From: Actinomycetota bacterium
GTDB lineage: Bacteria; Actinomycetota; Acidimicrobiia; Acidimicrobiales; Poriferisodalaceae
Direction: 5' to 3'
Assembly: GCA_014238065.1 (NCBI GenBank)
Contig: JABABU010000009.1
Span: forward strand, 25,581 to 89,580
Length of the DNA: 64,000 nucleotides
Shown: piece by piece, positions 930 through 22,628 of the stretch
Position numbering within the stretch: the stretch's first letter is position 1
Layout: every line of letters starts with the position of its first letter
The notes under the pieces: generated by a model
What the model was told of the DNA's origin: nothing
What the model saw: the letters and a program-made list of their open reading frames with translations, nothing else
The model's database searches: none
Position numbers and translations under genes: made by a program

Positions 930-976
930 ATCGGTGAGCGGGTGAAAATGGCCCGCGCCTACCGAGGGGAACGCGC

Positions 977-4625: not shown

Positions 4626-4637
4626 CGAAGGGCCGAA

Positions 4638-5996
4638 TCACACCGGCTGAAGTTCCGTCTCTTCTGGTTCTTGGGCTGCATCATCGCCGGCTTCATCCTC
4701 GGTGCCCGATGTCTTGTTGACGACGAAGGCAACGAGGGTGAAGATCGCGACGAGCCACATCGACCTGGGGAACTGGATCACCCTGTCGACCTGTTCCGAG
4801 ATGCCGAAGTCCTGGTCGAACAACCGCTCGACGGTCCACACCGAGGCAATGGTGGCCAAGACGACCGAACCTGCGACGAAGACCCAGCGGTACAGACGCG
4901 TCGATCTCATCATATGGAGGCCTGGGAACATCACGACGATGATGAATGCCTGACCGAGTTCGATCCCGACGTTGCGCCCGAGGAGCGACACCAGTTGTGT
5001 CGACCTGCTGATGTCGAGGTCGGACACCAGGGACGCGAATCCCATGCCGTGGAACAGCCCGAACGCGAAAGCTATCGCCCATTCCTTGTTGGCAGCGATC
5101 GGTCTGAGGTTGTGCAGAGCCGCGAGCGCTATCGACAGCGCTATCACTGATTCGACGAACTTCGACGACGGCAGTGGCAAGATGTCCATGCCGGCGAGGG
5201 TGAACGTGATCGAGTGAGCGACGGTGAACATGGTGGCGATCTTGAGCACCCGCCACAGCGCCGCTCCGAAGCTCGTCGCCGGCTCCCAGCCGTTCCTGAA
5301 CACGAGCACGGCCGGCAACAGCAGCACCAGGATGAAGAAGATGTGGTCAGGACCTGTCTTGATGTGGTCGACGCCGAGACCGATGCTCGCCCTGAAGTTC
5401 TTCCACTGACTCGATGACCCGAGATCGACATCCTTCGTGATCGAGCCTCTGTCGAACACCACCAGTTCCTCGGCCTCGTTGTCGATGAACCCACGTTCCC
5501 ATGAGTTCGCGATGAGCAGGAGGCTTCGATGTCCGTCCACCTCAGCGAGGAACGGGTCGAAGGTCACCGTCAGTTGACGAGGCACCTCTGGCCTCGGAAC
5601 TTCGACGTCGAAGGACAGAATGGCAAAGCCCCACTCCTGCGACAGACGAGCCCCGTCGAACAACTCGACGTCGACGACACCGATAGGCCACTGGTCACCG
5701 TTGGATCCGATGGCCAGGTGGTCGAGAACGTACGAGCGCAGGAACGCGAAGTTCTCCTCGAGCACGGCTGCTGCGAGCACCTCGTCGTTAGGAACGTCGA
5801 TGTCGAGGACGGCCTCGATTTCTCGCACCGGGAGTTCGACTCGGCCCGTCAGGGTGTCGTCGGTGACGTCGAGGTAGAGGTAGGACTCGCCTCTGTTATG
5901 GGCGCCGACCATCGCGGCCGACGCTGCGACCACGAGCGACGCGATGATGCTCGCGACGACGAATTTCGCCGTCAGACGTGAAGTTACTGATTTCAT
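4638..5996 (-). CDS. HupE/UreJ_2-like polytopic membrane protein with a ~220-aa N-terminal extracytoplasmic domain
   Basis: Signal/anchor AKFVVASIIASLVVAASAAMVGA. C-terminal half has TM segments with GPDHIFFILVLLLP, FTVAHSITFTLA and GLFHGMGFAS motifs. Its ATG overlaps the upstream ACAD stop (ATGA at 5993-5996). Confidence 0.7.
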   Translation of the reverse strand: MKSVTSRLTAKFVVASIIASLVVAASAAMVGAHNRGESYLYLDVTDDTLTGRVELPVREIEAVLDIDVPNDEVLAAAVLEENFAFLRSYVLDHLAIGSNGDQWPIGVVDVELFDGARLSQEWGFAILSFDVEVPRPEVPRQLTVTFDPFLAEVDGHRSLLLIANSWERGFIDNEAEELVVFDRGSITKDVDLGSSSQWKNFRASIGLGVDHIKTGPDHIFFILVLLLPAVLVFRNGWEPATSFGAALWRVLKIATMFTVAHSITFTLAGMDILPLPSSKFVESVIALSIALAALHNLRPIAANKEWAIAFAFGLFHGMGFASLVSDLDISRSTQLVSLLGRNVGIELGQAFIIVVMFPGLHMMRSTRLYRWVFVAGSVVLATIASVWTVERLFDQDFGISEQVDRVIQFPRSMWLVAIFTLVAFVVNKTSGTEDEAGDDAAQEPEETELQPV

Positions 5997-7195
5997 TGAG
6001 GAATCTCCATCAGGGCAGCGATCACATTTCGTTGGATGTCGGAGGTTCCCGAGTACACGAGCCCCCCGAGTGCGTCTCGAACTTCGCGTTCGATTCCGTA
6101 TTCGGACAGATAGCCCACAGCCCCGAACACTCGTACGGCATCCAGGGCGATTGCGGCAACAGCCTCGCTGACCACGAGCTTCGTCATGGCGGCCTCGAGC
6201 GTCACCGATCGCCCCGACGCGAGCAACATCGCCGTGCGATAGGTCTGCAGCCTCGCCGATTCGAACATGACGCGCATCTCCGCGATTCGGTGCGACACCG
6301 CCTGGAACGTTCCGATCGGCTGTCCGTATTGTTCGCGAGTCTTCGACGCGGTGACGGATTCATCGATGATGCGGTGGGCTGCGCCCAACTGTGTGGCGAA
6401 CATCAACCCGCGTTCTGGCTCCATCGTCGCGCTGAAGATTGATGCGCCCGAGCCGGGTTGCCCGATGAGATCGTCGGCTCCTGCGAGATAGCCGTCGAGT
6501 TCGATGTCGCCCAGCGGTGACGTACGCAGGCCCATCTTGTCGCGGCTCGTCGTGAATGTGACCCCCGGCCGGCCGGCTCTCACGAGAAACGCAGACACGC
6601 CCCACCTTCCGACGTCAGGGTTCGTGCTCGCGAACACCACAGCCACATCGGCAATCGGGCCAAGAGTGACGTAGCTCTTGCGACCGCTGAGCCGATAGCC
6701 GTCTTCGTCGGCCTCAGCGCGGGTGGCCATCGAGAACGTGTCGCTGCCTGCATCCTGCTCTGTGGCTGCGAACGCGCCGATGAGTTCGCCGCTGACCATG
6801 CGTGGGAGTAGCGACCGCCTCTGCGCTTCGGTGCCGAACGAGCTGAGCACATGTTGGACGATCAGCATCTGCGCGGCCACCGCCGTCGCCAGTCCGTTGT
6901 CACGACAGCCATAGCCGAGGCCCTCGAGCTTCAGGGTCGTGGTGACGAGGTCATCACCGGTACCGCCGTAATCGCGTGACACAGCCGATCCCAGCAGCCC
7001 GGTGGCGGCGACACGATCCCACTGGGTTCGATCGAAGCTCGATGCGGCGTCTCGCTGCACGAGGTCGGCAGCATCGAGGTGATCGGACGCCCAGTCTGCG
7101 ACTTCCTGCTTCAGGGGATGATTGATGTCAAGGAGCGCCGACACATCGAGGCCCTCGGCAACGTCGACCACTGACTGTGGTGCATCTGTCTCCAT
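5993..7195 (-). CDS. Acyl-CoA dehydrogenase family flavoprotein (possibly acting on a carrier-protein-bound substrate)
   Basis: Start taken at ATG 7195 (METDAPQS...); the upstream part of the 5993-7456 ORF is Arg-rich non-coding-like. ACAD-like C-terminal pattern QVFGAVGYLSEYGIEREVRDA...VYSGTSDIQRNVIA and mid-region FAATEQDAGSD. Confidence 0.9.
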   Translation of the reverse strand: METDAPQSVVDVAEGLDVSALLDINHPLKQEVADWASDHLDAADLVQRDAASSFDRTQWDRVAATGLLGSAVSRDYGGTGDDLVTTTLKLEGLGYGCRDNGLATAVAAQMLIVQHVLSSFGTEAQRRSLLPRMVSGELIGAFAATEQDAGSDTFSMATRAEADEDGYRLSGRKSYVTLGPIADVAVVFASTNPDVGRWGVSAFLVRAGRPGVTFTTSRDKMGLRTSPLGDIELDGYLAGADDLIGQPGSGASIFSATMEPERGLMFATQLGAAHRIIDESVTASKTREQYGQPIGTFQAVSHRIAEMRVMFESARLQTYRTAMLLASGRSVTLEAAMTKLVVSEAVAAIALDAVRVFGAVGYLSEYGIEREVRDALGGLVYSGTSDIQRNVIAALMEIPQ

Positions 7196-7320
7196 GGTTG
7201 CATATATTGCCGCAAATCGTCCATAGTCGCCACTTTCAGTGGTATTTTGCCAAAAGATTTGCCACACTCTGTTGAACCGGTCCGGGACGACCCGGGCGAC
7301 AGGTTTGGTGAGAACGTCTC
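7196..7320. promoter_or_regulatory. AT-richer divergent promoter region between the ACAD-like gene and the stand-alone A-domain gene
   Basis: Locally lower GC. TTGCC occurs three times (7207, 7247, 7259). Small inverted repeats CCACT-TTC-AGTGG (7230-7242) and CCGGG-ACGA-CCCGG. Confidence 0.4.
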
Positions 7321-8931
7321 GTGTTGGGTGAAATCGAAACGATGTCGATGAATGGAACAACTCCGAGGTTGACAATGCTCCCCGAGTTGATCGCGGAGTC
7401 CTGTCAGCGACGCCCCGACTCGGTTGCCGTCTCCTGCCACGATCAGGAGCTGACATATGAACAACTGCTCTCGCGGGTTCAGAAGCTCGCTGCGGGGCTC
7501 ATCAGCCGGTCGGTCGCTCCTGGCACCCCAGTCGGAGTGTTCCTCGGGAAATCGGTCGACGCCTACGTGGCGATGTTCGGCATCCAAGCCGCTGGTGCCG
7601 TTGCCGTGCCCATCGATCCGATGGCGCCGACGACCGTCGTGGCCAAGATCGTCGAGGAGATCGGACTCACTACCATCGTCGTGGATCCGATACGGGCCAG
7701 AAAGTTGCCGAAACTGGCCGCACCGACACTGCTCGTCGGGCCCGCCATCACCCCGGACACGCACAATGCGACGAACCCGTTGACATGGGACGAGATCGAC
7801 ACCTTCGACGAGAGCCCCATCCGACGTGTCGACCCTTCGCATCCGGCGTACATGATCACCACCTCGGGTTCCACGGGGAGACCCAAAGCGATGGTTCACA
7901 GCCACGCCAGCGGTCTCGCCTACGCGGCTCTGGCAGCCGACACCTTCGGCCTCACCCACGCCGACCGACTGGCCAATGTCGCCCCGTTCCACTTCGACAT
8001 CTCCACGCTCGAGCTCTACGCCAGTCCGCTGGTGGGCGCGACCGCCGTGCTGTTTCCAGAGGCGCTGCTGAAGTTCCCAGCTGATGTTTCGCGGGTCGTC
8101 GAGGAGCAACGAATCTCCGTCTGGTATTCGGTGCCGACAATCCTTCTCCACCTGCTCGAGCGGGGCGCTCTCGACCAGCGCGACCTGTCGTGCCTTCGGT
8201 GGGTGATCTTCGGTGGGGAGGTCTTTCCTTCCGGTCCCTTGGGCCGATTGATGAAGATGATCCCCGACGCCAGGTTCAGCAATGTCTATGGGCCCGCCGA
8301 AGTCAACGTCTGCACCTACCACCACGTCGAACAGGTACCAGAAGCTGGCGAATCGATTCCGATCGGGCGGCCGTGGGCTGACACCCACGTCATGGTCGTC
8401 GACGACAATCTGCGCGAGGTGCCGAACCGGTCCCGTGGCGAGTTGCTCGTCAGCACCACGACGATGATGACCGGCTATTGGAGACGCGATGAACTCAATG
8501 CCAGGTCCATCATCGAGCTCGAAGACGTAGAAGGCGTCATCCGGTGCTGGTATCGGACAGGCGACGTGGTCGAATGGCGCAACGACCACCTGATGTTCCA
8601 CGGCAGGGCTGACCGTCAGGTCAAGATCCGAGGCAACCGAGTCGAACTCGAAGCCGTCGAGACAGCGGTAGTCGATGTCGACGGTGTGATCACCTGCGGG
8701 GCATCCGTGATCGACGGTGAGCAGGACAAGATCTTGATCGCAGTCGTCGAAGCGCTTCCGGGGACGAGACCACGCGACGTCATCACCGGCGCGGCGACAG
8801 TACTGCCGCCGCACGCAGTACCCGACGAGGTGATCATCGTCGACTCGATGCCGCGAACTCCCTCCGGCAAGGTCGACTCCATCGCAGCCGTAGCCGCAGT
8901 CAACCGAAAACTCACAGGGAACCGAACATGA
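7321..8931 (+). CDS. Stand-alone adenylation enzyme (NRPS A domain / amino acid-carrier protein ligase)
   Basis: Core motifs TSGSTGRPKA (A3), FHFDIS (A4), NVYGPAE (A5), YRTGD (A7), GRADRQVKIRGNRVE (A8), PRTPSGKVD (A10). Start is ambiguous: GTG 7321, or ATG 7342/7348. Confidence 0.9.
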   Translation: MLGEIETMSMNGTTPRLTMLPELIAESCQRRPDSVAVSCHDQELTYEQLLSRVQKLAAGLISRSVAPGTPVGVFLGKSVDAYVAMFGIQAAGAVAVPIDPMAPTTVVAKIVEEIGLTTIVVDPIRARKLPKLAAPTLLVGPAITPDTHNATNPLTWDEIDTFDESPIRRVDPSHPAYMITTSGSTGRPKAMVHSHASGLAYAALAADTFGLTHADRLANVAPFHFDISTLELYASPLVGATAVLFPEALLKFPADVSRVVEEQRISVWYSVPTILLHLLERGALDQRDLSCLRWVIFGGEVFPSGPLGRLMKMIPDARFSNVYGPAEVNVCTYHHVEQVPEAGESIPIGRPWADTHVMVVDDNLREVPNRSRGELLVSTTTMMTGYWRRDELNARSIIELEDVEGVIRCWYRTGDVVEWRNDHLMFHGRADRQVKIRGNRVELEAVETAVVDVDGVITCGASVIDGEQDKILIAVVEALPGTRPRDVITGAATVLPPHAVPDEVIIVDSMPRTPSGKVDSIAAVAAVNRKLTGNRT

Positions 8932-9179
8932 ACCTGACCACACAACTGCTCGACTTCGTGAACCGTGAGGCCTCTCTCGATCCCACGACGCAGATCGAAC
9001 TCGAAACCGACCTCCTGCTCACCGGTCTCGTCGACTCCCTCGGCGTCATCAGGGTCGTGCAGTGGCTCGAGGACGAACTCGAGATGATGATCGACCCGGT
9101 CGATGTGATTCTCGAGAACTTCCAGACCGTCGCGAGGATGATCGATTTCGTCGAACTTCAGCGGGTCACCTCGGCATGA
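8928..9179 (+). CDS. Stand-alone peptidyl/aryl carrier protein (DltC-like)
   Basis: 83 aa. ATG overlaps the A-domain stop (ATGA). Phosphopantetheine site LVDSLG (Ser codon 9036-9038). Its stop overlaps the NRPS start. Confidence 0.85.
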   Translation: MNLTTQLLDFVNREASLDPTTQIELETDLLLTGLVDSLGVIRVVQWLEDELEMMIDPVDVILENFQTVARMIDFVELQRVTSA

Positions 9180-12100
9180 CGGATCGGGAGGCCGGCGATG
9201 GTCGCCTCGCCCTGGCACCCATGCAGCGGGCGCTCTGGGCGTCGCAGCGCCTCAACCCCACAGAGCCGCTGCAGAACATGGCGCATCTGACCCACATCGA
9301 CGGCCGGATCGACCCAGCCCGGTTCGCGGGAGCGTTCGCGTCTGTCGTGGCGGCCTCAGATGCGCTTCGCACACGAATCGTCGAGGTCGACGGCGTTCCA
9401 TGGGTGACTCTCGATGCCGATCAACCGGTCACCGAGATCCTCGAGATCCCACGAGACGAAGCCGACCCGTGGGCCCACCAACGCATCAACGAGCCATTGG
9501 ACATGGGCCGGAGGGGCCACGACAGTGCCCTACTGCTCCACGAAGACGGTACGGCCAGCTGGTACCTCGCCATCCACCACACCATCACCGACGCCACGTC
9601 GACGGCGATGGTCTTCGAAGCAACGAGCCGCGCCTATGCAGGGGACCCACCGACGTTTGGTTCCTACTACCAGTGGGCCGATCACATCGCCGAAAGACAC
9701 GACACGCGGGCCGGACGCGCCGACGCCCACTGGACCGCACGGAATCCACCACCACGGGTCGGCTCGCTCTATCGACACGCCGTCGCAGAGTCGACGCGCT
9801 CCACGCGACTGAACGCCGACCTCAACGACGACCTTGCGGCTGCAGCCGAAGCTGCACTGAACAGCGATTACCGGATGCTCAGCCAGGAGCTGGCATGGTC
9901 GACGGTGTTGTGCACGGCGGCCGCTGTTCATCTCCACCGTGTCACCGGCTGTCGGAGTCTCTCGGTCGGCTTGCCGGTTCACGGCAGGAATGATCCGACC
10001 GCGAGAGCCGTCGTCGGCGCCCTGGTCGAACTGTTCCCCGTCGACATCGAGATAGAACCCGGCGATGACTTCCTCACTCTCCATCGCAGAGTCGCCAGAT
10101 CAGTGATGTCGACGCTGTCGAACGCGGCCAATGGCACCTCTCCGCGACCCGACTACAGCGTCGTCGTAAACGTCATCCCGAAGGCCGGCTTCGGGCCCTT
10201 CGACGAAGCGGAGACGAAGACGCGGTGGATCCACCCCGGCGCATCCGACCCGACCAACCTGATATGGCTCCAACTGTCGCCGTACACGTCGGGCGCGCCG
10301 ACACTCGAGATCGACATCAACGCCACGGCTGCAGCACCCGAGGTCGCAACTCGGGTCGTCACGCACGTACAGAACATCCTCCGCTCGATGTTCGAATCAC
10401 CGACGCAACGCGTCAGCGAGGTCGATCTCGCCGGCACAGACGAAATCGAGACGCTTGATGCGTGGCGATCGACAGAGCCCGCAGGTGACGCTCCGTCGAC
10501 TCTCGAAGCACTGCGGAGGTCGTTGATCGACAGTCACGCTCCTGTCATCGAAGACGGGAACCTCTCACTCACGGGGAATGAGCTGTGGCGGCGTGTCGAA
10601 CAGGCGGCCTCGTGGATGGCGGCGAACGGAGCGGTCAGCGGCGACAGAGTCGCAGTTGCGATTCCACGAAGCGTCGATGCCGTCGTTGCGATCTTCGCCG
10701 TCATGCTCGCCGGTTGCTGCTACGTTCCGCTGGACCCGGCACACCCCCGGGAGCGACGTGATCGTCTTGCCTCTCGGGCAGGGTGCCGCATGACCATCAC
10801 CGAGCTTCCCCAGCCGATCGAGCACGAACTGCCGGCCCCCTCGATGCCAGCACGAGTGCCCACGGACGAGGCATACGTGCTGTTCACATCGGGATCGACC
10901 GGCGAACCGAAGGGTGTTCCCATCACCCATCGCGGGCTTGACACCTACATCGCATTCGCACTCGATGCCTACTTCGCCGGCAGCGGCGTACCCGTCGCTC
11001 CACTCTTCACGGCACTCACATTCGATCTCACCGTCACGACACTGTTCGCTCCTCTGATCGCAGGTGGTCGTCTCGTCGTCGTTCGGGAGGACGGCCCGAC
11101 CGGCGTGCTGCGAGTTGCCGACCGCTCCGATCTCACGTTCCTCAAGGCGACACCGTCGCATCTCGACATCCTGGTGAAGGCCAGACCGAAGTCGGTCGAA
11201 CTCGCAACGATCGTGGTCGGAGGAGAGGCATTCCCCGGCCATCTCGCAACCCAACTGTGGCGTACTTTTCCCGACGCCGAGGTCTTCAACGAATACGGCC
11301 CGACCGAAGCCGTCGTCGGATGCATGATCCACACGGCGACGGCCGAGGACGTCGAACGGTTCAGCGCCGTCCCGATCGGGCGCCCCGCACCAGGTGTGAC
11401 CCTCGCTGTCGTCGACGACCTCCTCTCCACCTTGCCGATCGGCGCTGTCGGCGAGTTGTGTATCGCATCCGATGGACTCACAGCCGGTTACCTCGACGAC
11501 CATGCTGGACCCGACCCGTTCGTCACCATCGGCGGTACACGGCACTATCGATCAGGGGACCTCGTTCGCCTCGTGGACGATTCCACTCTCATGTACGTGG
11601 GACGCGCCGACGAGCAGATCAAGATCGGTGGCATCCGGCTGGAGCCGACCGAGGTCGAGCATGCCCTCCTCGAGCATCCCGAGATCGCCGGTGCCGCCGT
11701 CAGACTCCGGCACGGGATACTCGTCGCGTGGGTGGTGAAAGCCGGCGGGGCAGAGCCTCCGGCGCCCGACGCGCTGACCCGTCATCTGGCGACCAGGCTT
11801 CCTTCGCACGCCATTCCGGGCGCCTTCGTCGCCGTCGACGAACTGCCAGTCACCACGAACGGCAAGCTCGACGACGCCTCCCTTCCCGACCCAGACCGTT
11901 CCGACCACCACGGCACCACCGCCTTCGTCGCGCCGGAGACCGACCTCGAGCGCGCGGTGGTCGCGGTCTACGAGGCCGCAATCGAGCGACATGTCGGCCT
12001 CGATGACGATTTCTTCGCTTCGGGCGGCGACAGCCTCGGCGCCATCGCCATGATCGTCGCGCTCGAGTCGAAGATCGGCGTTCCGCTGGCCGAGTCGGCC

Positions 12101-15100
12101 GCGTTCTCCTATACGACGCCGCGGACGCTCGTCGCAGCCATCGAAGCCGGATCCGCTGACAGGACCGAGGACGGCCCGACTCCCAGGGAACCAGGAACAC
12201 CACCCCCTCTGTCGAGTGGCGAAGCGTCACTGCTGTACGAGCACCTCTTGCAGCCCGACAGCCGTCGATACAACATCGCACGGCGCTACATCGTCGAGGG
12301 TCCGACCGACGCCGGTCGTCTCGAACGGTCGGTGCGTGCCATCGTTGCCGACCACGAACCGTTCCGATGGACGTTCTCGGAGCCTCGCCGCGAGTTGAGC
12401 GTGTCCGAGGCGCTCTCGTTCGACGAGGGCACCGGCGTCGTGTCCGAAGCCGAGTTTGCAGCCAAGGTCGACGCCCTGAGCGGAATCGCCTACGACCTCG
12501 ATCACGGGCCGCTCATGAGAGTGGTCCATCGCTGTCTCGATGCCAACAGAACCGGCATCGCGATCATGATGCATCACGTCAGCGGCGACGCCGGCACACT
12601 CGATCGGCTGTGGGAGCAGCTCGACGATCGCTACACATCCGGCCGTGCTCCCGCAATCGGCTTCAGGTACTCGGACCATGCAACCTGGCAACGTTCGCGC
12701 GACAACACCGAAGCGGCGAGATTCTGGTCGAGCGACCAGCTCGCGCTTCCGACGGCGACGATCTCGCACGACACCGCTGGCCCCTCTCGCGACGGTTACG
12801 TCTCACGACGGGCATCGTTCGGGCCCGACGACCTTCGAGCTGGACCGGGAACGACGCCGTTCGTGACTTCACTGGCGGCGCTGGCCTGGATGCTTCGACG
12901 CAGGGCCGACGGCGACAGGATCGGCGTCGCCTTCACGGGTTCGACGCGAGATCACCCTGGCGCAGAGCCGTTGCTCGGGTACTACCTCAACACGCTGCCA
13001 TTCGTGGTCGAGGTCGACGCAGCCGACTCGGCAGCACAAGTGGTGAAACGATGTAGCGAACTCATCCCCGAAACGATCGCACACAGGGCATACCCCTACG
13101 CTCAGATCGTCGCCGACCGGCGGGCAGCTGACCTGCCACCGCCGTCGGCATCGATACTGTTCACGCTCGAAGAGCTGGGCCCTGTCGAGTTCGGCGGCTA
13201 CGTCGCGACACCGACGATCGTGCCGAACCACGAAGCCGTCACCGACCTGGCGGTCTTCGTCATCGTGGGTCGTGACTCCATCGAGCTCGGCGTCGAGCAC
13301 AGCGGCACGGTCATCGACGCCGAGGGGGCTGCCGAGCTGCTCGACGACCTCGACGCAGCCATTCTCCACACACTCGAGCGTCCGACGTCGCCTCCCGAGT
13401 CGCTCGCGCTGCCGTCCATCGGCCGGCCGGTCGACGGAGCGCTGTTCGCGACCGAACCCGATCTCAGCGTCGTCGACGTCTTCTCCGACATCGCCCGACG
13501 CACACCGGATTCCGTCGGTGCGATGTGTGGTTGCGTCGAGCTGACCTATCGCGAGATCGACGAGGCTTCGAACCGGCTCGCGAATCACCTGCGCGGCCTC
13601 GGAGTCGAGAGGGGTGAGTTCATCGGCGTCGAGGCCAGCCGCAACCCTCACACCATCGCTGCGATCCTCGGTGTGCTCAAGACGGGGGCTGCATACGTTC
13701 CGCTCGACCCCGAGTATCCGGCCAGCCACCGCTCGATGGTCCTCGACGACGCGGACATCACGCACATCGTCTCTTCCACTCGGCTGGACGCACCGGGCGA
13801 GTCGACGTCGGTGATCGGACTGAACGATGAGTCGGTAAGTTCCGCGTCGCCAGATCGGCCGGCGATTCAGCTCAGCGACACGGACGCCGCGTACGTGATC
13901 TACACCTCCGGCTCCACCGGTCGGCCCAAGGGGGTGGTGGTGTCGCACGGAAACATCGCTCACTCCACGTACGCGCGCCGTCTCGTGTACCCCGACCCGC
14001 CGTCGAGCTTCCTGCTCCTGTCGTCGTTCGCGTTCGACAGCTCGATGGTCGGCCTGTGGTGGTCACTGACCACCGGTGGCCGAGTCGTCCTGCCGCAGGA
14101 GGGTGAACAGACCGATGTCTGGCGGCTCGGAGAGATCATCGAGTCGGAGTCGATCACACACGTGCTGGCGTTGCCGTCGCTGTACGAGCTGATCGTCGCT
14201 GAGCTGAAGCCAGGGAACGTCGATCACCTGACCACCGCCATCGTCGCAGGTGAGGCGTGTCGGCCGAGCACCATCGCCGCTCACCTCGAGGCCGGACTCA
14301 CGGCGGCCCTGTACAACGAGTTCGGCCCGACGGAGGCAACGGTGTGGACACACGCCGCCCGCGTCGACACCCTCCCATCCGGCGAGTTGCCGCCGATCGG
14401 CAGCCCGATACCGGGCGTGAAGTCCGCCGTCGTCGACCAGAGCGGTCGGCTCCTTCCGGTGGGAACCCCTGGTGAGTTGGTCGTTGCCGGTCCGACGGTC
14501 GCTGCCGGCTACCACCGGCGAGCAGAGCTCACCGCCGAGAAGTTCGGACCGATTCCTTCTCTCGGGGACGGGCGCTGGTATCGCACGGGCGACATCGTGA
14601 AACAACGCCGCGACGGCACGTTCATGTTCACCGGACGCATCGACGATCAAGTCAAAATCAGGGGACACCGGATCGAGCTCGGTGAGGTCGCCGCAGCCGC
14701 ATCGGCCAACCCCGGCGTGATCGAGGCTGTTGCCGGAATCGCGGCTTGTGATGAACCGACCACGCCGCGGCTTGCAGTCTGGTTCACCACGAACGGCGAT
14801 GTCGGGTGCGCCGAGGTGAGGGACACCATCGAGTCGAGACTCCCTGGCCACATGGTGCCGACGCTGCTACGCGAGCTGGATCACTTTCCTCGAACTCCGG
14901 CAGGCAAGGTCGACAGGGCAGCTCTTCCCGAACCGCTGCCGGTCGAGTCCACCCGAGCTGTCGGGCGTGCCCCGGCAGGTGAGCCCGAGGTGGCACTCGC
15001 CCGAGTGTGGTGTGACGTGCTCGGACTCCCCGAGGTCAAGGCCGACGACAACTTCTTCGATCTCGGTGGCGACTCGATCGTGAGCATCCAGATCGTGTCG

Positions 15101-16576: not shown

Positions 16577-19500
16577 CGTACCCCGAAGGAGAGGGTCGAG
16601 TTCACCAAGCATGCATTCGACCAAACGTGATGCGTTTGCTCCAAGCAAGAGGTCGGCATGTCGGCCCGGGACCACTTGGACCGTGAGGCCGGCCGGCGTC
16701 GACGCCCATCCTCGAGTTGGTCCATGTCGTTCGTACGCCCAGTCGATGTGCTCCGCGGTGAACAGCAATACACGACCGCTGAATGGCGCTGTCACATGAC
16801 CGTGGACCGCTGCGATGAGGCTCTCGCGAAGGTGAACCTCGCGCAGTTTGATCGGCATCGACTCGGGGGAAGCATCGCTGGTCGCTGACGAATAGAGTTT
16901 CATGCGGCGGCGCCTGACCGCACGCTCATTCCATCGCGACCTCAACGTCGCAACGCCTCCGCTCCCCAGTCGAACGAGTCGCCTCATCGTCGGCGCCCGA
17001 GATCGGATGAGAGATGGATGGGTCGTGTCGAGCAACAGCACGGCGAGCACATCTGCGCCGGACGCTTCGAGGCGATAGGCCATCTCATGCGCGATGACTC
17101 CACCCGCCGAGTATCCGGCGAGCACGTACGGGCCCTTGGGCTGACGCCGCGTGACCTCCGCGAGGTACGCGTCGCAGTACTCGTCGATGGTGGTGTGGAC
17201 GTCAGCCACGCCGTCGACGCCTGCGGCCTGGATCCCGACGAGGTTCCATGAGCCCTCGAGCTCGACACCCATGGCTCGCATGTTCATGACGTTCCCGCCG
17301 GCTCCATGGACGCAGAAGATCGTCGGAAGATCCGGCGAAGTCCGATTCACGTCCACCAGGTGATGCCACGACATCGCTTCGCCTTCGGGAGAGTTGACGA
17401 GCCTCGCCAGCGCTGCGGCGGTTGGCCTCTCGAACAGCGTCGCAAGCTGTACGTCGCGATCGAACGCCTTCTTGATCCTGGCGATCAACTTCAACGCCAG
17501 CAGACTGTGACCTCCGACGTCGAAGAAGTCGTCATCGATTCCGACGTGGTCGCCGATCACCATTCGCCAGAGCGCCAGCATCTCCGTTTCGTGCGGGAGA
17601 AGATTGCTTCTGGTCTCTGTCTCTCGGGGTACTACATCGGCCGCCGGAAGGCTTCGCCTGTCGAGCTTGCCGCTCGGAGTTCGCGGGAACTCGTCGAGCA
17701 CGACCACGGCGGTCGGGGTCATCTGCGACGACAGTCTCGCAGTGCATCGATCGATCACCTGCCACGGTTCGACTGATTCGCCACCGACCGCGGTGACGTA
17801 GGCGATGAGTCGTTCGCGGCCTTCGGCACCTTCGAGCACCACAACGACTTCGGACACAGACGGATCGTCCCTGATGGCGGTCTCGATCTCACCGAGTTCG
17901 ACCCTGACTCCTCTGACCTTCACCTGGTGGTCATTGCGCCCGAGACACTCCAACTGGCCGCCAGGCAACCAACGTCCGAGGTCGCCGGTCCGGTAGAGGC
18001 CCGTCAGTTCCCTTCCGGCAACCGACGCTTCGAAGAAGGCCTCTAGGGTGAGGTCGTCTCGGCGCCAGTATCCGTGCGCCAACACCGTGCCGCTGACGTG
18101 TATCTCCCCGACGACACCGACCGGTACCGGTCGACGCAACGAGTCGAGCACGAAGACCTTGCAGTTGTCGATGGGTCGCCCGATCGGGACCGACTCGCAC
18201 TCGACCTCCCATCGGTCGTCGTAGTGGGCGACGTCGAGTGTGGCTTCGCTCATTCCGTAGAAGTTGAGAAGGACGGCGTGGGGCATCTGAGTCCTGAACC
18301 GGTCCGCCAACTCTCGTGAGGTCCGTTCGCCGCTGAAGGTCCAGTAGACGAGATCAGGGAGTCTGCTTGCGAGATCGGGATGAGTGTCGAGCAGCACCCT
18401 GATGTAGGACGGGACCAGAACCACGCGCCTGATTCTGTGTCTGGCGAGAAGGTCGATGAATCGGTTCGAGTCAATCAGCACATCCTCAGGTACGAGCACC
18501 TGTGGACGGCCGAGCAGAAGAGCTCCCCACAGCTCCCAGAGGTGGTCGACGAAGCTCAGAGTCGTCTTCTGACACAGCACCTCGTCGTCGCCGACCGGGT
18601 AGTCACCCGCCTGCCACAGCACTCGATTGATGACCCCGCGGTGATGGCTGCGAACCCCCTTCGGTCGGCCGGTCGATCCCGAGGTGAACGGAATGAGCAC
18701 TGTCGACTCGGGCCCGATGTCTGGCGTGGGCGGCGCCCCGGCGCGACCCGACAACTCGATCTCGTCGAGCTTCAGGACGTCGACGGCCATCGCCTCAAAA
18801 CGATCCTCATCGAGCTGTTCGGCCGAAGCCGTGTTGGCGAGGACCATCGGCATAGCGGAGTCTTGGGCGATGAGAGCGATGCGATCCCTCGGGTGTGTCG
18901 GGTCGAGCGGCACGTATGCGCCACCCGCCTTCACGACCGCGAGGACGGCAACGACCATGTCGAACGACCTGTGGATCGAGACACCCACCGGCGTTTCGGG
19001 ACCGACGCCACGTTCCACCAGGAGCCACGCAAGCGCTGAGGACCGGTTGTCGAGTTCGGAGAACGTCATCGACTGATCCCCCGAGATCAACGCCGTCGCG
19101 TGCGGCGCGTCGCGCACCACATCTGCGAAGAGCTCGTCGAGCGTTCTGTCCAGTTGATGATCGCGGTCGGTTTCGTTCCATCTATCGACGATCGTTGCGA
19201 CCTCGCCCTCGGTCATCACCTCGACGCAGGCAGCCGAGGCCGGCCCGTTCGTGGCGAGATCGACGAGGGCAGTTCCGAGGTGGCCCATCAGCTGCGCCAT
19301 TTGTTCAGACGCGAACCTCGCATTGTCGAACAACACCGTGAATCCGAGTGGTTCACCCGGGCGCACCATGACCGTGATCGGGTAGTGGCTTTGCTCGAAC
19401 ACATCGCCGCGGGTGACCTTCAGCGACGTCTCGCCGCTTCGCCGACTCATGGGGTAGTTCTCGAACACCAGGATCGACTCGAAGAGTTCCGTCCCAGGGG

Positions 19501-20509
19501 CGACATCGCTCCAACGGTGTACGTCGGCCAGGGACGAATGTTGGTGACCCAGCAACTCGAGCTGCTGGCCCTGTACCGAGCGGAGCCAGTCGTCGATCGG
19601 CACCTCGCTGTCCGCATCGATCCGCATGGGAAGTGTGCTGAGGAACATACCGATCATGTCCTCGACACCGTCGAGTTCAGCCGGCCGACCAGCCATCGTC
19701 ACACCGAACACGACATCGGATTCCCCGCTGTAGCGGCCGAGAACGACCGCCCATGCCGCCTGGACCAATGTGTTGACCGTCACCCGGGACCTGCGCGCGA
19801 ACTCGACGATCTTGGCTGTCTCGGAGCGAGACAGGTCGATCTCGAGGCGTCCGAGTTCGAAGTCTGCTGTCTGGTCGGCAGTGCCGAATCGAAGTGATGT
19901 CGGTGACTCGAACCCGGCGAGGCGATCTCGCCAGAAACGCTCCGTTTGGACATGGTCATGGCCGAGGAGCCACTCGACGTGTCGCTTGAACGGTGGTGGT
20001 TCGTGACGCTCGACGTCTGGCCGCGAGTAGGAGTCCATGGCCTCGTCGAAGATCCTCACCACCGACCAACCGTCGAGCGCGATGTGGTGGAAGTTCCAGA
20101 CGAAATGCCATGTAGATTCGTCGACTCTGACCAGCACGAAGCTCGACGTGGGAGCCTTCGACAGGTTGATTCCCTTGCGCCTCTCTGCGTCACAGATCGC
20201 CTGAAGTTCCGCATCCACGTCTTCGACATCTATCGAGCGCAGATCGACCTCGATCCATGGGAGTTCGACCTGCGAGCGGACGACCTGCAGTGGTTCGTCG
20301 AGGCCCTGCCAGACGAACACCGTGCGAAGAGCAGCGTGACGCGCGAACGTTCGATCCCACGACGTCTTGAACGCAGCGATGTCGAGATCACCTTCAAGGT
20401 CGGCCCTCACCTGCTCGAAGTACAGCGCAGGATCGTCGCTACGAAGGGTGTGGTAGAGAATGCCGGCCTGCGAAGGGGTCAGCGGATATATGTCGTCTAC
20501 GTTGTCCAT
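16553..20509 (-). CDS. Non-ribosomal peptide synthetase, domain order C-A-T-TE (terminal module)
   Basis: N-terminus MDNVDDIYPLTPSQAGILYH, start taken at ATG 20509 (the ORF track allows up to 20617). HHIALDGWS; FTSGSTGRPKG ... YGMSEATLD ... YRTGD ... PSGKLD; GGHSL; TE with HGAGGN and GYSAGG. The 3' end overlaps NRPS-1 by 24 nt. Confidence 0.93.
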   Translation of the reverse strand: MDNVDDIYPLTPSQAGILYHTLRSDDPALYFEQVRADLEGDLDIAAFKTSWDRTFARHAALRTVFVWQGLDEPLQVVRSQVELPWIEVDLRSIDVEDVDAELQAICDAERRKGINLSKAPTSSFVLVRVDESTWHFVWNFHHIALDGWSVVRIFDEAMDSYSRPDVERHEPPPFKRHVEWLLGHDHVQTERFWRDRLAGFESPTSLRFGTADQTADFELGRLEIDLSRSETAKIVEFARRSRVTVNTLVQAAWAVVLGRYSGESDVVFGVTMAGRPAELDGVEDMIGMFLSTLPMRIDADSEVPIDDWLRSVQGQQLELLGHQHSSLADVHRWSDVAPGTELFESILVFENYPMSRRSGETSLKVTRGDVFEQSHYPITVMVRPGEPLGFTVLFDNARFASEQMAQLMGHLGTALVDLATNGPASAACVEVMTEGEVATIVDRWNETDRDHQLDRTLDELFADVVRDAPHATALISGDQSMTFSELDNRSSALAWLLVERGVGPETPVGVSIHRSFDMVVAVLAVVKAGGAYVPLDPTHPRDRIALIAQDSAMPMVLANTASAEQLDEDRFEAMAVDVLKLDEIELSGRAGAPPTPDIGPESTVLIPFTSGSTGRPKGVRSHHRGVINRVLWQAGDYPVGDDEVLCQKTTLSFVDHLWELWGALLLGRPQVLVPEDVLIDSNRFIDLLARHRIRRVVLVPSYIRVLLDTHPDLASRLPDLVYWTFSGERTSRELADRFRTQMPHAVLLNFYGMSEATLDVAHYDDRWEVECESVPIGRPIDNCKVFVLDSLRRPVPVGVVGEIHVSGTVLAHGYWRRDDLTLEAFFEASVAGRELTGLYRTGDLGRWLPGGQLECLGRNDHQVKVRGVRVELGEIETAIRDDPSVSEVVVVLEGAEGRERLIAYVTAVGGESVEPWQVIDRCTARLSSQMTPTAVVVLDEFPRTPSGKLDRRSLPAADVVPRETETRSNLLPHETEMLALWRMVIGDHVGIDDDFFDVGGHSLLALKLIARIKKAFDRDVQLATLFERPTAAALARLVNSPEGEAMSWHHLVDVNRTSPDLPTIFCVHGAGGNVMNMRAMGVELEGSWNLVGIQAAGVDGVADVHTTIDEYCDAYLAEVTRRQPKGPYVLAGYSAGGVIAHEMAYRLEASGADVLAVLLLDTTHPSLIRSRAPTMRRLVRLGSGGVATLRSRWNERAVRRRRMKLYSSATSDASPESMPIKLREVHLRESLIAAVHGHVTAPFSGRVLLFTAEHIDWAYERHGPTRGWASTPAGLTVQVVPGRHADLLLGANASRLVECMLGELDPLLRGTSRVEALQ
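16556..17340 (-). other. NRPS-2 thioesterase (TE) release domain
   Basis: IFCVHGAGGN oxyanion region and nucleophile elbow GYSAGG (Ser near 17108-17110). Alpha/beta-hydrolase length. Confidence 0.8.
17395..17600 (-). other. NRPS-2 thiolation domain T3
   Basis: DDDFFDVGGHSLLALKL; Ser codon complementary to 17504-17506. Confidence 0.85.
17660..19160 (-). other. NRPS-2 adenylation domain A3 with shifted pocket Asp (by-eye code V-D-W-V-T-S-F-L-D-K)
   Basis: LSFVDHLWE replaces the canonical FDxS(V)WE motif (V-D codons at 18545-18550). Also VLVPSY, TFSGER, NFYGMSEATLD. Confidence 0.7.
19200..20509 (-). other. NRPS-2 condensation domain C3 (sequence pattern of a D-donor-accepting, DCL-type C domain)
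   Basis: YPLTPSQAGILYH opening motif and HHIALDGWS. It follows an E domain in the assembly order. Borders are approximate. Confidence 0.7.
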
Positions 20510-20609
20510 GTCAGTGGCGCACGCCCTGACAGGGTCTCTGCCCGCAGACGTACACGACCTCAATCGGCCGAAAAGTGCGCTTTTGTGACCAATTCGCATC
20601 ATCTCTGAC
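20510..20609. promoter_or_regulatory. Divergent promoter region between NRPS-2 and the PPTase gene, with a near-palindrome
   Basis: 100-bp gap if NRPS-2 starts at 20509. Contains AAAAGTGCGCTTTT (20571-20584), a 14-bp near-perfect palindrome. Confidence 0.35.
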
Positions 20610-21404
20610 ATGACCAACGCCCTCGAAGAGCCGACGCCTCAACGACCACGCCGAAGTCAGGCGATCGAGGCGCTGATCGCCGACAGTTCGCGGCGCTCAC
20701 ATGAACCACAGGTGCCAGGCGGACCAGGCAGCCTCTCGGCTTTCGAGGTGTTGGGGCAGGTGGATCACTCGCTACTGCACTCCATCGTCAACTTCGATGC
20801 GGAGACCGACTTGATCGCCACAGCCTCTTCACTGCGGCGCAGACACTTCCTCGCCGGACGGTCGTGCGCCCATGCTGCGTTGAGTGCGCTCGGGGTACAT
20901 CACGAGGGCATCGGCCGCCACGACAGCAGAGCACCCCTGTGGCCATCGGGAGTGATCGGCGCCATCACGCACACCGAGGGTTACGTTGCGGCTGCGATCG
21001 CTCTCGACCCTGCTGCCGAGTTCGGAATCGGGATTGACGCCGAACAGGTGGGTCGAGTCGACGAAGGGGTCGCTCGACGCGTCATGAACGAAGCGGAACG
21101 AGACGCGGTGGCCGGTCAGGCCGACGAGGACGTTGCAGCAACAGCGCTGTTCTGCGCGAAGGAGTCGTTCTACAAGGCTCAGTGGCCGCACACCAAGGCG
21201 TGGGTCGGCTTCGAGGACGTGACGGTCTCGTTCGAAGGCGACGGCACCATCACCACGACATCGGCCGGCCCCGCCGGGACCCTCGTGCTTCGTCCGGCCA
21301 CCGAACGTCCGGCGCTCAACGACTTCGTGTGGCCGATCGTGGCGAACTACTTCGTCGCAGGGCAGGTCACAGTGGCCGGGCTCGTCGCGTCACACCGTCG
21401 CTGA
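20610..21404 (+). CDS. 4'-phosphopantetheinyl transferase, EntD/Sfp-type
   Basis: FLAGRSCAHAAL, WPSGVIGAITHTEGY, GIGIDAE and FCAKESFYKAQW motifs. Confidence 0.88.
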   Translation: MTNALEEPTPQRPRRSQAIEALIADSSRRSHEPQVPGGPGSLSAFEVLGQVDHSLLHSIVNFDAETDLIATASSLRRRHFLAGRSCAHAALSALGVHHEGIGRHDSRAPLWPSGVIGAITHTEGYVAAAIALDPAAEFGIGIDAEQVGRVDEGVARRVMNEAERDAVAGQADEDVAATALFCAKESFYKAQWPHTKAWVGFEDVTVSFEGDGTITTTSAGPAGTLVLRPATERPALNDFVWPIVANYFVAGQVTVAGLVASHRR

Positions 21405-22628
21405 CGCCGTCTCCTCGCCTCGGCGATCCAGCAACGCAAAGCAGACCGTCGCCCCCAGCGCCACGGCACCCATGATGACGATCGTAGGTCGGAGGCCGAT
21501 CCATTCCGCCGTCACCCCCAGTGGCAGCGCCACGATTCCGAACCCGGCGAACGACAGCTGCATCAGCGACTGAACCCTGCCGTGGTGGCTTGCATCGCTG
21601 GAGGTGATGACAATGCTGTTCGCAAGGGTCTGAAACCCCGTTGCGCCAGCACCGATGAAGACCGTAATGAGGAACGCGACCGCGTAGGTCGGAGCGACAC
21701 TCAGCAGCATCACCGTTGCCCCAAACGCAATCCCGAGGCCGACGGCGTACAGCCTGACCCTCGAGGAGTTGGCTCTCGCCGCCACCGGAATCGAGATCAT
21801 CACCGCGCCCAAGGAACTGGCGGTGCTCATCAATCCGACTGCGCCATCGCCGAGACCGAAGTCGCCCTCGACGAGGGCAGGCATGAACGCTATGTAGTTG
21901 AACCCGAACATGATCACGATCGTCGACGAGACGACGACCCGACGCAGCGGCGGCCTCGACGCTACGTAGGAGAATCCGTCGATGATGTCCGCCATGGGGC
22001 TCGCGGTGGACCGGGAAACGGCCTCGATCTCAGGCAGGCGCCACGTCAACACCAGGCTCCAGGTCGAAAAGACACCAGCGACGACGTACGCGCCACCGAT
22101 CCCTGCGAACGCGACGCCGGCGAGGAGACCAGCCAGCGACGGAGCGAAGATCCGTGTCGTGCTCATCGACATCATCGACAACGAGATTGCGTTGCCGAGG
22201 AGTTCCGGGCCGACGAGGTCGTTCGCCATCGAGGTCCTCGCAGGACCGGTGAGACCGAACATCGAGGCCTGAACCGCTCCGGCCACCAGCAGCATCCAGA
22301 ATTCGGCAACATCGGTGAGCACTACCACTCCCATGCCGAAGGAAACGCATACGAGCAACGCCTGGCCGATGATCAGGAGCCGACGCTTGCTCAAGCGGTC
22401 TGCGGCCACACCGCCGAACGGCGTCAACAGCAGCATGGTGACACCGAACACGACGAAGACGAGGCCGAGTGCGCTCTCGCGGTGCGTCAGTTCCCATGCC
22501 AGCAGCCCTCGCAGCAGGAACTGCATCTGAACACCCATGAACGAGAACACACCGCTCCACCAGAGCAGGCGATATTCCGGCACGCGCAGCGACTCAAACG
22601 CTTCGACACCGCGTGAACGCCTCGACAT
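21390..22628 (-). CDS. MFS transporter, EntS-like (MFS_3) putative product exporter
   Basis: 412 aa, about 12 TM segments. N-terminal pattern LRVPEYRLLWWSGVFSFMGVQMQFLLRGLLAWELT. Its 3' end overlaps the PPTase 3' end by 15 nt. Confidence 0.85.
   Translation of the reverse strand: MSRRSRGVEAFESLRVPEYRLLWWSGVFSFMGVQMQFLLRGLLAWELTHRESALGLVFVVFGVTMLLLTPFGGVAADRLSKRRLLIIGQALLVCVSFGMGVVVLTDVAEFWMLLVAGAVQASMFGLTGPARTSMANDLVGPELLGNAISLSMMSMSTTRIFAPSLAGLLAGVAFAGIGGAYVVAGVFSTWSLVLTWRLPEIEAVSRSTASPMADIIDGFSYVASRPPLRRVVVSSTIVIMFGFNYIAFMPALVEGDFGLGDGAVGLMSTASSLGAVMISIPVAARANSSRVRLYAVGLGIAFGATVMLLSVAPTYAVAFLITVFIGAGATGFQTLANSIVITSSDASHHGRVQSLMQLSFAGFGIVALPLGVTAEWIGLRPTIVIMGAVALGATVCFALLDRRGEETASATV

Follow-up and report, generated by a model that had tools for sequence, protein, structure and literature searches.

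A stretch of 64,000 nucleotides from contig JABABU010000009.1 (assembly GCA_014238065.1, positions 25,581 to 89,580 of the forward strand; hereafter the window, from whose first letter all positions are counted) contains a small and complete nonribosomal peptide synthetase (NRPS) cluster at about 4.6-22.6 kb, in an uncultured Acidimicrobiia host. Judged by its domains, the assembly line is Cs-A-T-LCL-A-T-E followed by DCL-A-T-TE (C, condensation, with the subtypes Cs for starter, LCL and DCL; A, adenylation; T, thiolation; E, epimerisation; TE, thioesterase). The predicted product is pyrrole-2-carbonyl-L-Asn-D-His with a further, beta-Ala-like residue. Our best explanation overall, for which we estimate a probability of about 0.6, combines this biosynthesis with a role of the product as a Cu(II)/Ni(II) metallophore as its most likely function. 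The biosynthetic reading cap-Asn-D-His-X is in itself quite probable. That the product is a Cu(II)/Ni(II)-binding metallophore is, taken alone, a tentative proposal with the odds somewhat against it.

The assembly line is encoded by two genes with the following features.

9176-16576, plus strand: NRPS1, 2466 aa, Pfam order C, A, T, C, A, T, C (the last C being E)
about 9203-10510, plus strand: C1, starter-type, HHTITDA at 9575
about 10553-11875, plus strand: A1, Asn-like, pocket code DLTKVGEVGK
12032-12034, plus strand: Ser953 of T1, motif GGDSL
about 12203-13525, plus strand: C2, LCL-type, HHVSGDA at 12572
about 13568-14920, plus strand: A2, His-like, pocket code DSVLIAEVWK
15074-15076, plus strand: Ser1967 of T2, motif GGDSI
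about 15233-16573, plus strand: E, HHLVIDG at 15608, with EGHGRE, GWFT and NYLG
16553-20509, minus strand: NRPS2, 1318 aa, Pfam order C, A, T, TE
19193-20497, minus strand: C domain of NRPS2, DCL-type, HHIALDGWS
17666-19126, minus strand: A3, pocket code VDWVTSFLDK, Asp at 236 instead of 235
17396-17572, minus strand: T3, motif GGHSL
16622-17323, minus strand: TE, motif GYSAG

The domains, their order and their active-site motifs were observed directly. All core motifs (HHxxxD, A3, A5, A7, A8, A10, GGxS and GxSxG) are intact, A3-A10 being present in both A1 and A2, and the line is collinear with a terminal release domain. Among solved structures C1 is nearest to two starter C domains, those of CDA-PS1 (C1) and RzmA (Cs), and C2 matches Txo1/2 and the LCL domain TycC6. 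The last domain of NRPS1, called C by Pfam, was assigned as an epimerase because it carries the E motifs and because all of its matches among solved structures are E domains, those of BacC, PvdL, TycB, GrsA and TycA. The C domain of NRPS2 scored 220-352 bits against McyB, PvdL, BacC, TycB1 and SrfA-C, as compared with 61 bits against the LCL domain TycC6; the five higher-scoring C domains we take to be ones that follow an epimerised residue and use a D-configured donor. A three-module line, C-A-T-C-A-T-E and C-A-T-TE, had been read in an earlier, sequence-only note on this DNA (the original prediction), and the domain order found with Pfam profiles and the core motifs agree with it, the E domain being settled by the motifs and structure matches above.

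NRPS1 and NRPS2 overlap by 24 nt at their 3' ends (16553-16576). Since the two genes are convergent, the D-His peptide would have to pass between two separately transcribed proteins. The C-terminus of NRPS1 is an acidic helical tail, DLVDLEEPELDHLTELLKSLDA, which could be a docking (COM-type) element.

The pocket codes were read off after aligning the A domains with a GrsA-PheA reference in MAFFT, and the register was validated by the fact that the alignment reproduces two published signatures exactly. The code of A1, already read as DLTKVGEVGK and as Asn-like in the original prediction, was reproduced; it is one residue off the classical Asn code and is identical or nearly so in every relative described below. 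The signature DLTKIGEVGK is that of Asn or cyano-Ala (PMC12283262). A2 had been regarded as unassignable with the code DSVAIAEVWK. Position 278, however, is Leu and not Ala, and the corrected code is His-like: it lies one residue from the published His signature DSALIAEVWK, which also accepts beta-OH-His (PMC12283262) and which the relatives carry exactly. The shifted-Asp pocket predicted for A3 was found again, and a beta-Ala-like substrate is proposed for it with modest confidence. The proposal rests on the likeness of the code to beta-Ala codes of the VDWVISLADK type, for which no open-access confirmation was found; the open-access literature searched gave no beta-Ala code, only DSALIAEVWK and DLTK-type codes.

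Chain initiation would depend on a loading cassette of three proteins.

5993-7195, minus strand: flavin adenine dinucleotide (FAD)-dependent enzyme of the acyl-CoA dehydrogenase (ACAD) family, prolyl-carrier-protein dehydrogenase type, 400 aa
6413-6415, minus strand: Glu261 of the ACAD, at the position of the catalytic Glu of PigA, AnaB and Bmp3
6050-6052, minus strand: Ser382 of the ACAD, in VYSGTSDIQ, replacing the canonical ACAD Glu of the YEGT motif
7375-8931, plus strand: stand-alone A enzyme, 518 aa, alternative upstream starts at 7321, 7342 and 7348
8928-9179, plus strand: stand-alone peptidyl carrier protein (PCP), 83 aa, PF00550 PP-binding 30.1 bits
9036-9038, plus strand: Ser37 of the PCP, the phosphopantetheinyl Ser, motif LVDSLG

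The ACAD is most likely the third member of this cassette, which together with the free A enzyme and the carrier would form a classical thiotemplated Pro-to-pyrrole trio. A combination of A enzyme, acyl carrier protein (ACP) and ACAD makes up the thiotemplated pyrrole route, in which the Glu at the position of Glu261 is the catalytic base (PMC10849742). The two best NCBIfam models of the ACAD were RedW (NF045652, 355.5 bits) and PigA (NF053553, 328.3 bits). Its four best solved relatives were AnaB (4IRN, 283 bits), Bmp3 (6CXT, 249 bits, an entry that bears the deposition title 'butyryl-CoA dehydrogenase') and PigA (5ZW0/6AF6, 227 and 224 bits), and a true butyryl-CoA dehydrogenase ranked next with 214 bits. 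In the alignment, Glu261 falls on the Glu of PigA that entry 6AF6 carries as Ala, and in AnaB and Bmp3 it falls on the WE(R/K) motif. The YEGT Glu, which is the canonical ACAD base in 1BUC, is replaced by Ser382, and the same position is likewise Ser in AnaB, Bmp3 and PigA. The gene had been described as a divergent accessory; the models, the structure matches and the two residues place it in the cassette instead. Since the ACAD is a cassette member of the prolyl-PCP dehydrogenase type, the cap would most likely be pyrrole-2-carboxyl derived from L-Pro. Initiation in trans by the adjacent A and PCP pair, as foreseen in the original prediction, is thus retained, and of the generic acyl or aminoacyl cap foreseen there the capping is kept and the generic nature is given up.

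The free A enzyme contains AMP-binding and AMP-binding_C domains (Pfam) and scores 326.5 bits with TIGR01733, a model for amino-acid adenylation whose cut-off is 317.4. It had been placed at 7321-8931; the gene and its end are correct and the start is not, 7321 being the start of the longest open reading frame (ORF). PltF (6O6E, L-proline-[L-prolyl-carrier protein] ligase) matches it over its full length with 220.8 bits and is its best single-domain solved match, and a PDB search with a profile of seven such A enzymes gave 408.8 bits for PltF as compared with 303.6 bits for the best single LgrA domain. The pocket code is DILYIGVVCK (DQFYLGVQCK in relatives), and Asp235 and Lys517, the residues that bind the alpha-amino and carboxylate groups, are kept. 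The enzyme probably loads L-Pro.

Sets of ACAD, ligase and ACP also occur in lipopeptide clusters, and C1 is closest to the lipoinitiation starter domains CDA-PS1 C1 and RzmA Cs. It could therefore be imagined that the free A enzyme is a fatty-acyl ligase, that the carrier is an ACP and that the ACAD desaturates an acyl chain to give a lipotripeptide, as in clusters of the friulimicin, CDA and ramoplanin type. We consider this very improbable. The result with TIGR01733, the conservation of Asp235 and Lys517 and the best single-domain match to a Pro ligase all argue against it, as do the prolyl-dehydrogenase signature in the ACAD active site in place of the YEGT Glu and a score of only 71 bits with the MbtN-type acyl-ACP dehydrogenase model. 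Lipoinitiation was rejected on the adenylation model, the two A-enzyme residues and the ACAD active-site signature.

The reading of the cap as pyrrole has to be weighed against several facts. The ACAD does not reach the equivalog cut-offs (355.5 against 650 bits for RedW, 328.3 against 500 bits for PigA) and is thus an equivalog of neither, and it shares no more than 38% identity with AnaB and 36% with PigA. The free A code agrees at only five of ten positions with DLFYLALVCK, the code of a halogenase-containing cassette, and a Pro analogue or pipecolate is a possible substrate to judge from the pocket. The open-access literature searched gave no pyrrole-type Pro pocket code. Four-electron and two-electron oxidation by the ACAD are, moreover, indistinguishable from sequence. 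These facts leave some room for another unsaturated N-heterocyclic cap, in which the ACAD would halt at a two-electron dehydroprolyl or pyrroline-carboxyl thioester or the A enzyme would load a Pro analogue or pipecolate. AnaB, the top solved relative of the ACAD, is a two-electron prolyl-ACP oxidase of the anatoxin pathway, and the codes DILYIGVVCK and DQFYLGVQCK would fit such a view. In two relatives a gene of the ornithine-cyclodeaminase family adjoins the cassette; Pro supply is a plausible role for it, and the family (OCD_Mu_crystall) takes in lysine cyclodeaminases as well. We nevertheless hold a cap other than pyrrole to be unlikely. Both of the best NCBIfam models, RedW and PigA, describe four-electron enzymes, and among the single-domain matches of the A enzyme PltF ranks first. 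In addition, the closest ACAD homolog in a recognisable cassette (L018, Chloroflexi metagenome-assembled genome (MAG) GCA_003696605.1, 50% identical) lies in an ACAD-A-FAD halogenase-PCP arrangement, as is usual for halopyrroles, and in characterised pathways such a halogenase acts on the pyrrole after its formation (PMC10849742).

The L018 cassette is located at 10001-14319 of its contig, has the A code DLFYLALVCK, and is adjoined by a two-module NRPS, an aromatic ammonia-lyase gene and a sulfotransferase gene. Its product is probably halopyrrole-containing and unrelated to the family described below.

Two further genes complete the biosynthetic set on the right side.

20610-21404, plus strand: Sfp/EntD-type 4'-phosphopantetheinyl transferase (PPTase), 264 aa, 4PPT_N 76 bits, ACPS 55.7 bits
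21390-22628, minus strand: MFS_3/EntS-like major facilitator (MFS), 412 aa, PF05977 78.6 bits, PF07690 107.9 bits

The top NCBIfam matches of the PPTase were Npt, PptT and EntD, each under its own cut-off, and the MFS protein scored 110 bits with the NCBIfam EntS model (cut-off 324). The latter is a probable exporter by its family. Both the cluster's own EntD-type PPTase, through 4PPT_N and ACPS, and the EntS-like MFS, through MFS_3 and PF07690, were recovered as expected.

On the left side, the cluster extends beyond the boundary of 5993 given in the original prediction, which cuts off a permease gene that is translationally coupled to the ACAD gene and syntenically conserved.

4638-5996, minus strand: anglerase-type HupE/UreJ-2 permease, 452 aa, PF13795 133 bits against a cut-off of 24.5

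The ATG of the HupE gene overlaps the stop codon of the ACAD gene as ATGA. On the opposite strand, the carrier gene overlaps both the A gene and the NRPS1 gene, each as ATGA, and these three genes are therefore regarded as translationally coupled.

HupE has the layout of the anglerase-HupE/UreJ-2 proteins (Ang-1, 9GCE; Ang-2 of Actinomycetota): a signal peptide followed by an invariant His, a beta-sandwich outer domain, a flexible linker and the PF13795 membrane domain. The signal peptide ends in AxA|H, so that after the predicted cleavage His33 would be residue 1 of the mature protein; AxA|H is kept in five of five cluster-linked copies and in 60 of 60 homologs, and among the 60 homologs A32/H33 and H211/D217/H218 are invariant. 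About 190 aa of beta-sandwich lie between the signal peptide and the membrane core, and the core contains GVDHIKTGPDHI, AHSIT, AALHN, FGLFHGMGFA and NVGIELGQ, with conserved His, Asp and Glu residues that include GVDHIxTGxDHI. An AlphaFold2 model had a confidence score (pLDDT) of 86.6, and residues 37-191 were mostly beta-strand, with values above 90 over much of this stretch. A Foldseek search of the PDB with the model ranked 9GCE first (E 4.3e-4, target TM-score 0.59, 14% identity). This entry is the Ang-1 domain of a HupE/UreJ-2 protein with Cu bound; the similarity is modest and leaves Ang-1 versus Ang-2 undecided. The Zn-binding periplasmic proteins ZrgA and PA4063 came next. Judged from the model and the conserved residues, the window HupE carries an N-terminal-His anglerase domain.

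Anglerases are mono-histidine-brace domains fused to permeases, and metal-ion capture for uptake was proposed for them (PMC12537917). They bind Cu2+ with a Kd of about 60-70 nM and Ni2+ with a Kd of 220 nM; the measurements were made on RbAng-1a and MmAng-2a only, and import was proposed, not shown (PMC12537917). The neighbourhoods published there consist of unknown proteins, DUF4198, metallophosphatases and DUF916. Since the terms 'NRPS' and 'nonribosomal' are absent from the main text of PMC12537917, an operon link between an anglerase permease and a prolyl-PCP dehydrogenase is not described there.

To place the cluster among relatives, we examined ten ACAD homologs (48-59% identical) and one HupE homolog picked blind to its context. 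The nearest non-self ACAD is only 61% identical, and the three-module version is for this reason confined so far to one population. A scan of GTDB species-representative genomes with the ACAD gave only generic ACADs (24-32% identity) and no cultured host. Among cultured genera, Ilumatobacter has an annotated HupE homolog, in I. fluminis. Seven further loci of Acidimicrobiia-type MAGs (L013, L015, L016, L019, L102, L104 and L105) show an A-PCP-NRPS unit on one side and a (PhyH)-ACAD-HupE unit on the other. ACAD and HupE genes thus occur together in eight loci including the window, directly adjacent in all but L102, with start and stop codons overlapping in four of the eight and with outer flanks that are unrelated. 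L105 was the locus reached blind from the HupE side, and it proved to be the same cluster type. In L101 and L103, whose hosts look diderm, a TonB-dependent receptor gene is divergent from the ACAD gene in the place of HupE, and both loci have His-like and Asn-like A domains.

In every relative whose NRPS can be seen, an Asn-like first module is accompanied by a His-like one, and we therefore conclude that the invariant core of the family is cap-Asn-His. The simplest version, in L016, is C-A(Asn)-T-C-A(His)-T-TE. With somewhat less certainty, we infer that the cluster belongs to an uncharacterised family with the core (Pro-derived cap)-Asn-His. The window differs from its relatives in having the E domain, a third module on a separate convergent gene, and its own PPTase and MFS exporter. 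It has no PhyH-family oxygenase, which stands ahead of the ACAD in several relatives. The Asn-type A domain contains a PP-loop insertion (SGGKDS; Pfam ThiI/QueC) in L013 (1-5838), L015 (1-5897), L019 (2914-5511) and L104 (1-5759), and a stand-alone PP-loop protein is encoded in L020 (3509-4588). A similar arrangement, an A domain with the code DLTKIGEVGK and a 342-aa adenine-nucleotide alpha-hydrolase insertion, forms the Asn-to-beta-cyanoalanine module of albicidin (PMC12283262). The four relatives resemble that module in the insertion and in the type of pocket code. The window A1, unlike the albicidin module, has no insertion and has normal A8-A10 spacing (residues 809 to 891), and its product should for this reason keep Asn.

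Two side observations concern the diderm-looking loci. In the region 7000-21600 of L101 (JGI 3300045684) and L103 (GCA_030428885.1), a guanidinoacetate-N-methyltransferase-like gene lies among the split NRPS genes, and the ACAD gene of L103 was called at 559 aa as compared with about 400 aa elsewhere.

From these components the following pathway can be proposed, in which substrates, extent of oxidation and mode of release are predictions. The PPTase would prime the four carrier domains, and the free A enzyme would load L-proline onto the free carrier protein. The ACAD-family flavoenzyme would then oxidise the prolyl-S-PCP, most likely to pyrrole-2-carboxyl-S-PCP with removal of four electrons; a dehydroprolyl thioester, formed by removal of two electrons as in AnaB, is a possible alternative. 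The starter-type C1 of NRPS1 would transfer the cap onto Asn, the LCL domain would add His, and the E domain would epimerise it. The DCL domain of NRPS2 would take over the D-His peptide and add the small beta-Ala-like amino acid, after which the TE would free the product, most simply by hydrolysis, and the EntS-like MFS would export it. In the product, the nitrogens of the ring, of two backbone amides and of the residue-3 imidazole may form a 5,5,6 chelate like that of the amino-terminal Cu/Ni (ATCUN) site, and the metal may be passed from the peptide to the HupE permease.

The metallophore role seems the most likely function because the ACAD gene is probably co-transcribed with that of the HupE permease or, in the diderm-looking relatives, adjoins a TonB-dependent receptor gene. 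TonB-dependent receptors are siderophore-specific markers in NRPS clusters (PMC12971057). The uptake-type partner genes, the EntS-like exporter and the His at position 3 after a ring-N residue together fit a Cu/Ni chelator. The original prediction had found no uptake receptor and no IdeR/Fur-like box that would label the product a siderophore. Their absence from the window stands; the case against a metal role, however, is made weaker by the HupE partner and by the TonB-dependent receptors of two relatives, which are uptake genes of the kind sought there.

Several results, however, speak against the metal link. Profile searches found no catechol, hydroxamate, beta-hydroxylase or other known chelator pathway at 4.6-22.7 kb; the pathways recognised by the mining rule are those for catechol, salicylate, hydroxamate, beta-OH-Asp, beta-OH-His, graminine, Dmaq and the pyoverdine chromophore (PMC12971057). 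The same searches found no TonB-dependent receptor, FecCD permease or binding-protein/ABC importer in the window. A TonB-dependent receptor, a FecCD permease or a periplasmic binding protein is what the transporter rule of Crits-Christoph et al. asks for as summarised in PMC12971057, and HupE/UreJ-2 is not covered by the rule in that form. The region between the two operons shares no motif with the equivalent regions of seven related loci in a k-mer and palindrome search, and a recognisable metalloregulator box was not found in the window. One relative, L020, has the cassette without HupE. Among metagenome contigs, where HupE/UreJ-2 has at least 586 relatives, the neighbourhoods of the best 80 loci were examined, and only one of them (L029) has the cassette; the three closest have none. 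The predicted site is, further, only ATCUN-like and not a member of the ATCUN class, as it has an N-acyl cap with a ring nitrogen at position 1, and the NH of a pyrrole donates to a metal far less well than the free amine found in true ATCUN sites.

A classical siderophore was rejected, as the window contains no chelator pathway. A HupE dedicated to the NRPS was likewise rejected, as 79 of the best 80 metagenome loci lack the cassette. The link is specific to a lineage and runs in one direction: nearly all cassettes come with the permease, and most permeases come without a cassette.

It is also possible, though we lean against it, that the same assembly line makes an antibiotic, a protease inhibitor or a signal, and that HupE is a housekeeping permease that merely shares the transcript or the neighbourhood. 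The commonness of HupE/UreJ-2 and the 79 loci without the cassette agree with this, as do the usual neighbours of HupE relatives (a TPR protein, a transketolase-like or a DUF4331-like gene), the L020 cassette and the lack of a metalloregulator motif and of a known chelator pathway in the window. It is more difficult to reconcile with the association of ACAD and HupE in eight loci with unrelated flanks, four of them with overlapping start and stop codons, and with the blind pick from the HupE side that hit the same cluster type. The diderm-looking relatives, moreover, exchange HupE for a TonB-dependent receptor, a marker of metallophore uptake, and the residues that are invariant in the family, Asn and His, are positions 2 and 3 after the ring-N cap. 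If the metallophore reading is extended to all relatives, the family would represent a class of small nonribosomal peptides, not recognised before, that serve as Cu(II)/Ni(II) metallophores and have the core (pyrrole-/dehydroproline-2-carbonyl)-Asn/cyanoAla-His and an ATCUN-like four-nitrogen site. They would be made by abundant uncultured Acidimicrobiia and some diderms and would deliver the metal to the His1 anglerase domain of a co-transcribed HupE/UreJ-2 permease or, in diderms, to a TonB-dependent receptor. This extension is doubtful at present.

Outside the NRPS-linked clade, the commonest neighbours of HupE relatives (metagenome loci L025-L100, about 35% identity) are a TPR protein, in 48 loci, a transketolase-like gene, in 29, and a probably DUF4331-like protein that starts with SSHREAP after its signal peptide, in 15. 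These neighbourhoods suggest a separate conserved metal-related module.

The closest known systems are the thiotemplated pyrrole cassettes PltF/PltL/PltE of pyoluteorin, RedM/RedO/RedW and PigI/PigG/PigA of the prodiginines and ChmJ/ChmI/ChmH of chalkophomycin. The Bmp1 carrier domain with the oxidase Bmp3 is a further relative, and AnaC/AnaD/AnaB of anatoxin-a is the two-electron variant. The window shares with these cassettes a stand-alone A enzyme, here probably of the Pro type, the stand-alone carrier and the ACAD flavoenzyme, and with PigA, AnaB and Bmp3 the Glu at the catalytic position and the Ser in place of the canonical Glu. It differs from them in the absence of a halogenase, ketosynthase and N-oxygenase and in its divergent A code. 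The oxidised cap would, unlike in those cassettes, go to the starter C domain of a purely peptidic three-module NRPS, and the ACAD is probably co-transcribed with the metal permease, not with the A and PCP genes. Hormaomycin is a nonribosomal peptide capped by a (modified) pyrrole-2-carboxyl unit, a starter that HrmK-N make. By this description, and not by sequence, the two systems are alike in that a Pro-derived pyrrolyl-S-carrier protein is the starter of a multimodular NRPS; hormaomycin is, however, a large depsipeptide with a chlorinated N-hydroxypyrrole and unusual amino acids, unlike the tri- or tetrapeptide-sized Asn-His product predicted here. The hrmKLMN genes are mentioned in PMC10849742.

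As for metal sites, the ATCUN site has the form H2N-X-X-His, and the bleomycin site combines a heteroaromatic N, a deprotonated amide N and a His imidazole. By analogy with the former, the predicted product has His at position 3, and its cap ring N could close the 5,5,6 chelate; as in bleomycin, Asn and His would be NRPS building blocks. Unlike an ATCUN peptide, it would have no free N-terminal amine, the donor being a pyrrole NH, or an imine N if the oxidation is a two-electron one, and it would carry the extra beta-Ala-like residue after D-His.

Each component of the cluster is of a known kind: the modular NRPS, the thiotemplated pyrrole cassette, the Sfp-type PPTase, the MFS exporter and the anglerase permease. 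Three features are new: an Asn-His scaffold that is purely peptidic and built on a pyrrole-type starter, the repeated occurrence of this scaffold as a family in uncultured Acidimicrobiia, and the operon link to a HupE/UreJ-2 anglerase permease. The Acidimicrobiia are widespread, mostly uncultured actinobacteria of waters and soils, from which, to our knowledge, almost no natural products have been characterised. At about 18 kb the cluster is compact, and it recurs, is fully specified and includes a PPTase and an exporter of its own, which makes heterologous expression realistic. If the metal link is true, the product would be of a nitrogen-only peptide chelator type (ring N, amide N and imidazole) that current metallophore-mining rules miss, and the anglerase-HupE/UreJ-2 uptake systems described in 2025 would gain in it their first small-molecule partner; one could then test directly how anglerase permeases get Cu or Ni where the water is poor in metals. 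Should the metal link fail, thiotemplated pyrrole biosynthesis would still be extended to a purely peptidic Asn-His scaffold.

All seven genes named in the original prediction were found in the ORF listing and in Pfam and NCBIfam profile searches of the window. The window is 99.87-99.99% identical to contigs of several metagenomes and of one NCBI MAG (GCA_965659245.1) and is therefore a real, recurrent sequence. A gene of housekeeping type elsewhere in the window has 86% identity with proteins of 'Acidimicrobiia bacterium' MAGs, which places the host in the Acidimicrobiia. Independent gene calls on the near-identical public contigs reproduced the boundaries of the cluster genes. Compared with the longest ORFs, the gene callers shortened the ACAD to 400 aa (5993-7195), the 487-aa ORF reaching 7456 being an over-extension, and started the A enzyme at 7375. 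Neither protein names nor the literature yielded a characterised product or a named cluster (MIBiG was not covered), and within that scope the term 'orphan' used in the original prediction stands for now.

The shortened ORFs leave an intergenic region between the operons.

7196-7374, no strand: divergent promoter region of the ACAD-HupE and A-PCP-NRPS1 operons, AT-rich relative to the window

It contains TTGCATATATTGCCGCAA (TTGC-N10-GCAA), the direct repeat TTTGCCA-N5-TTTGCCA and a CCACT-TTC-AGTGG hairpin.

The remainder of the window, at 23-64 kb, contains generic metabolism with nothing obviously tied to the NRPS cluster in the profile searches. A block at 47028-54943 on the minus strand encodes methylamine/C1 and amino-acid metabolism (a dimethylglycine-dehydrogenase-like protein, a GntR-aminotransferase regulator, an MttB-family methyltransferase, a DegT-type aminotransferase and a histidinol-dehydrogenase-family protein). 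It resembles a glycine-betaine-type catabolic locus, and a tie to the NRPS is not obvious. Below the HupE gene (window 1-4625; 1-5698 in the contig L001) lie the genes of a three-subunit Fer2/molybdopterin/FAD enzyme of the xanthine- or CO-dehydrogenase family and, farther out, of a secreted M36 (fungalysin-type) peptidase of 1216 aa. These flanking genes are not common to the related clusters. Finally, a variant of the window contig (L003, ENA ERZ23487621 scaffold_16) has a 10-bp deletion at the equivalent of about 9176-10100, which breaks NRPS1 up into a fragment of 306 aa and a remaining part of 2156 aa and would disrupt the starter C domain. The deletion could be a genuine loss-of-function allele or else an assembly error.

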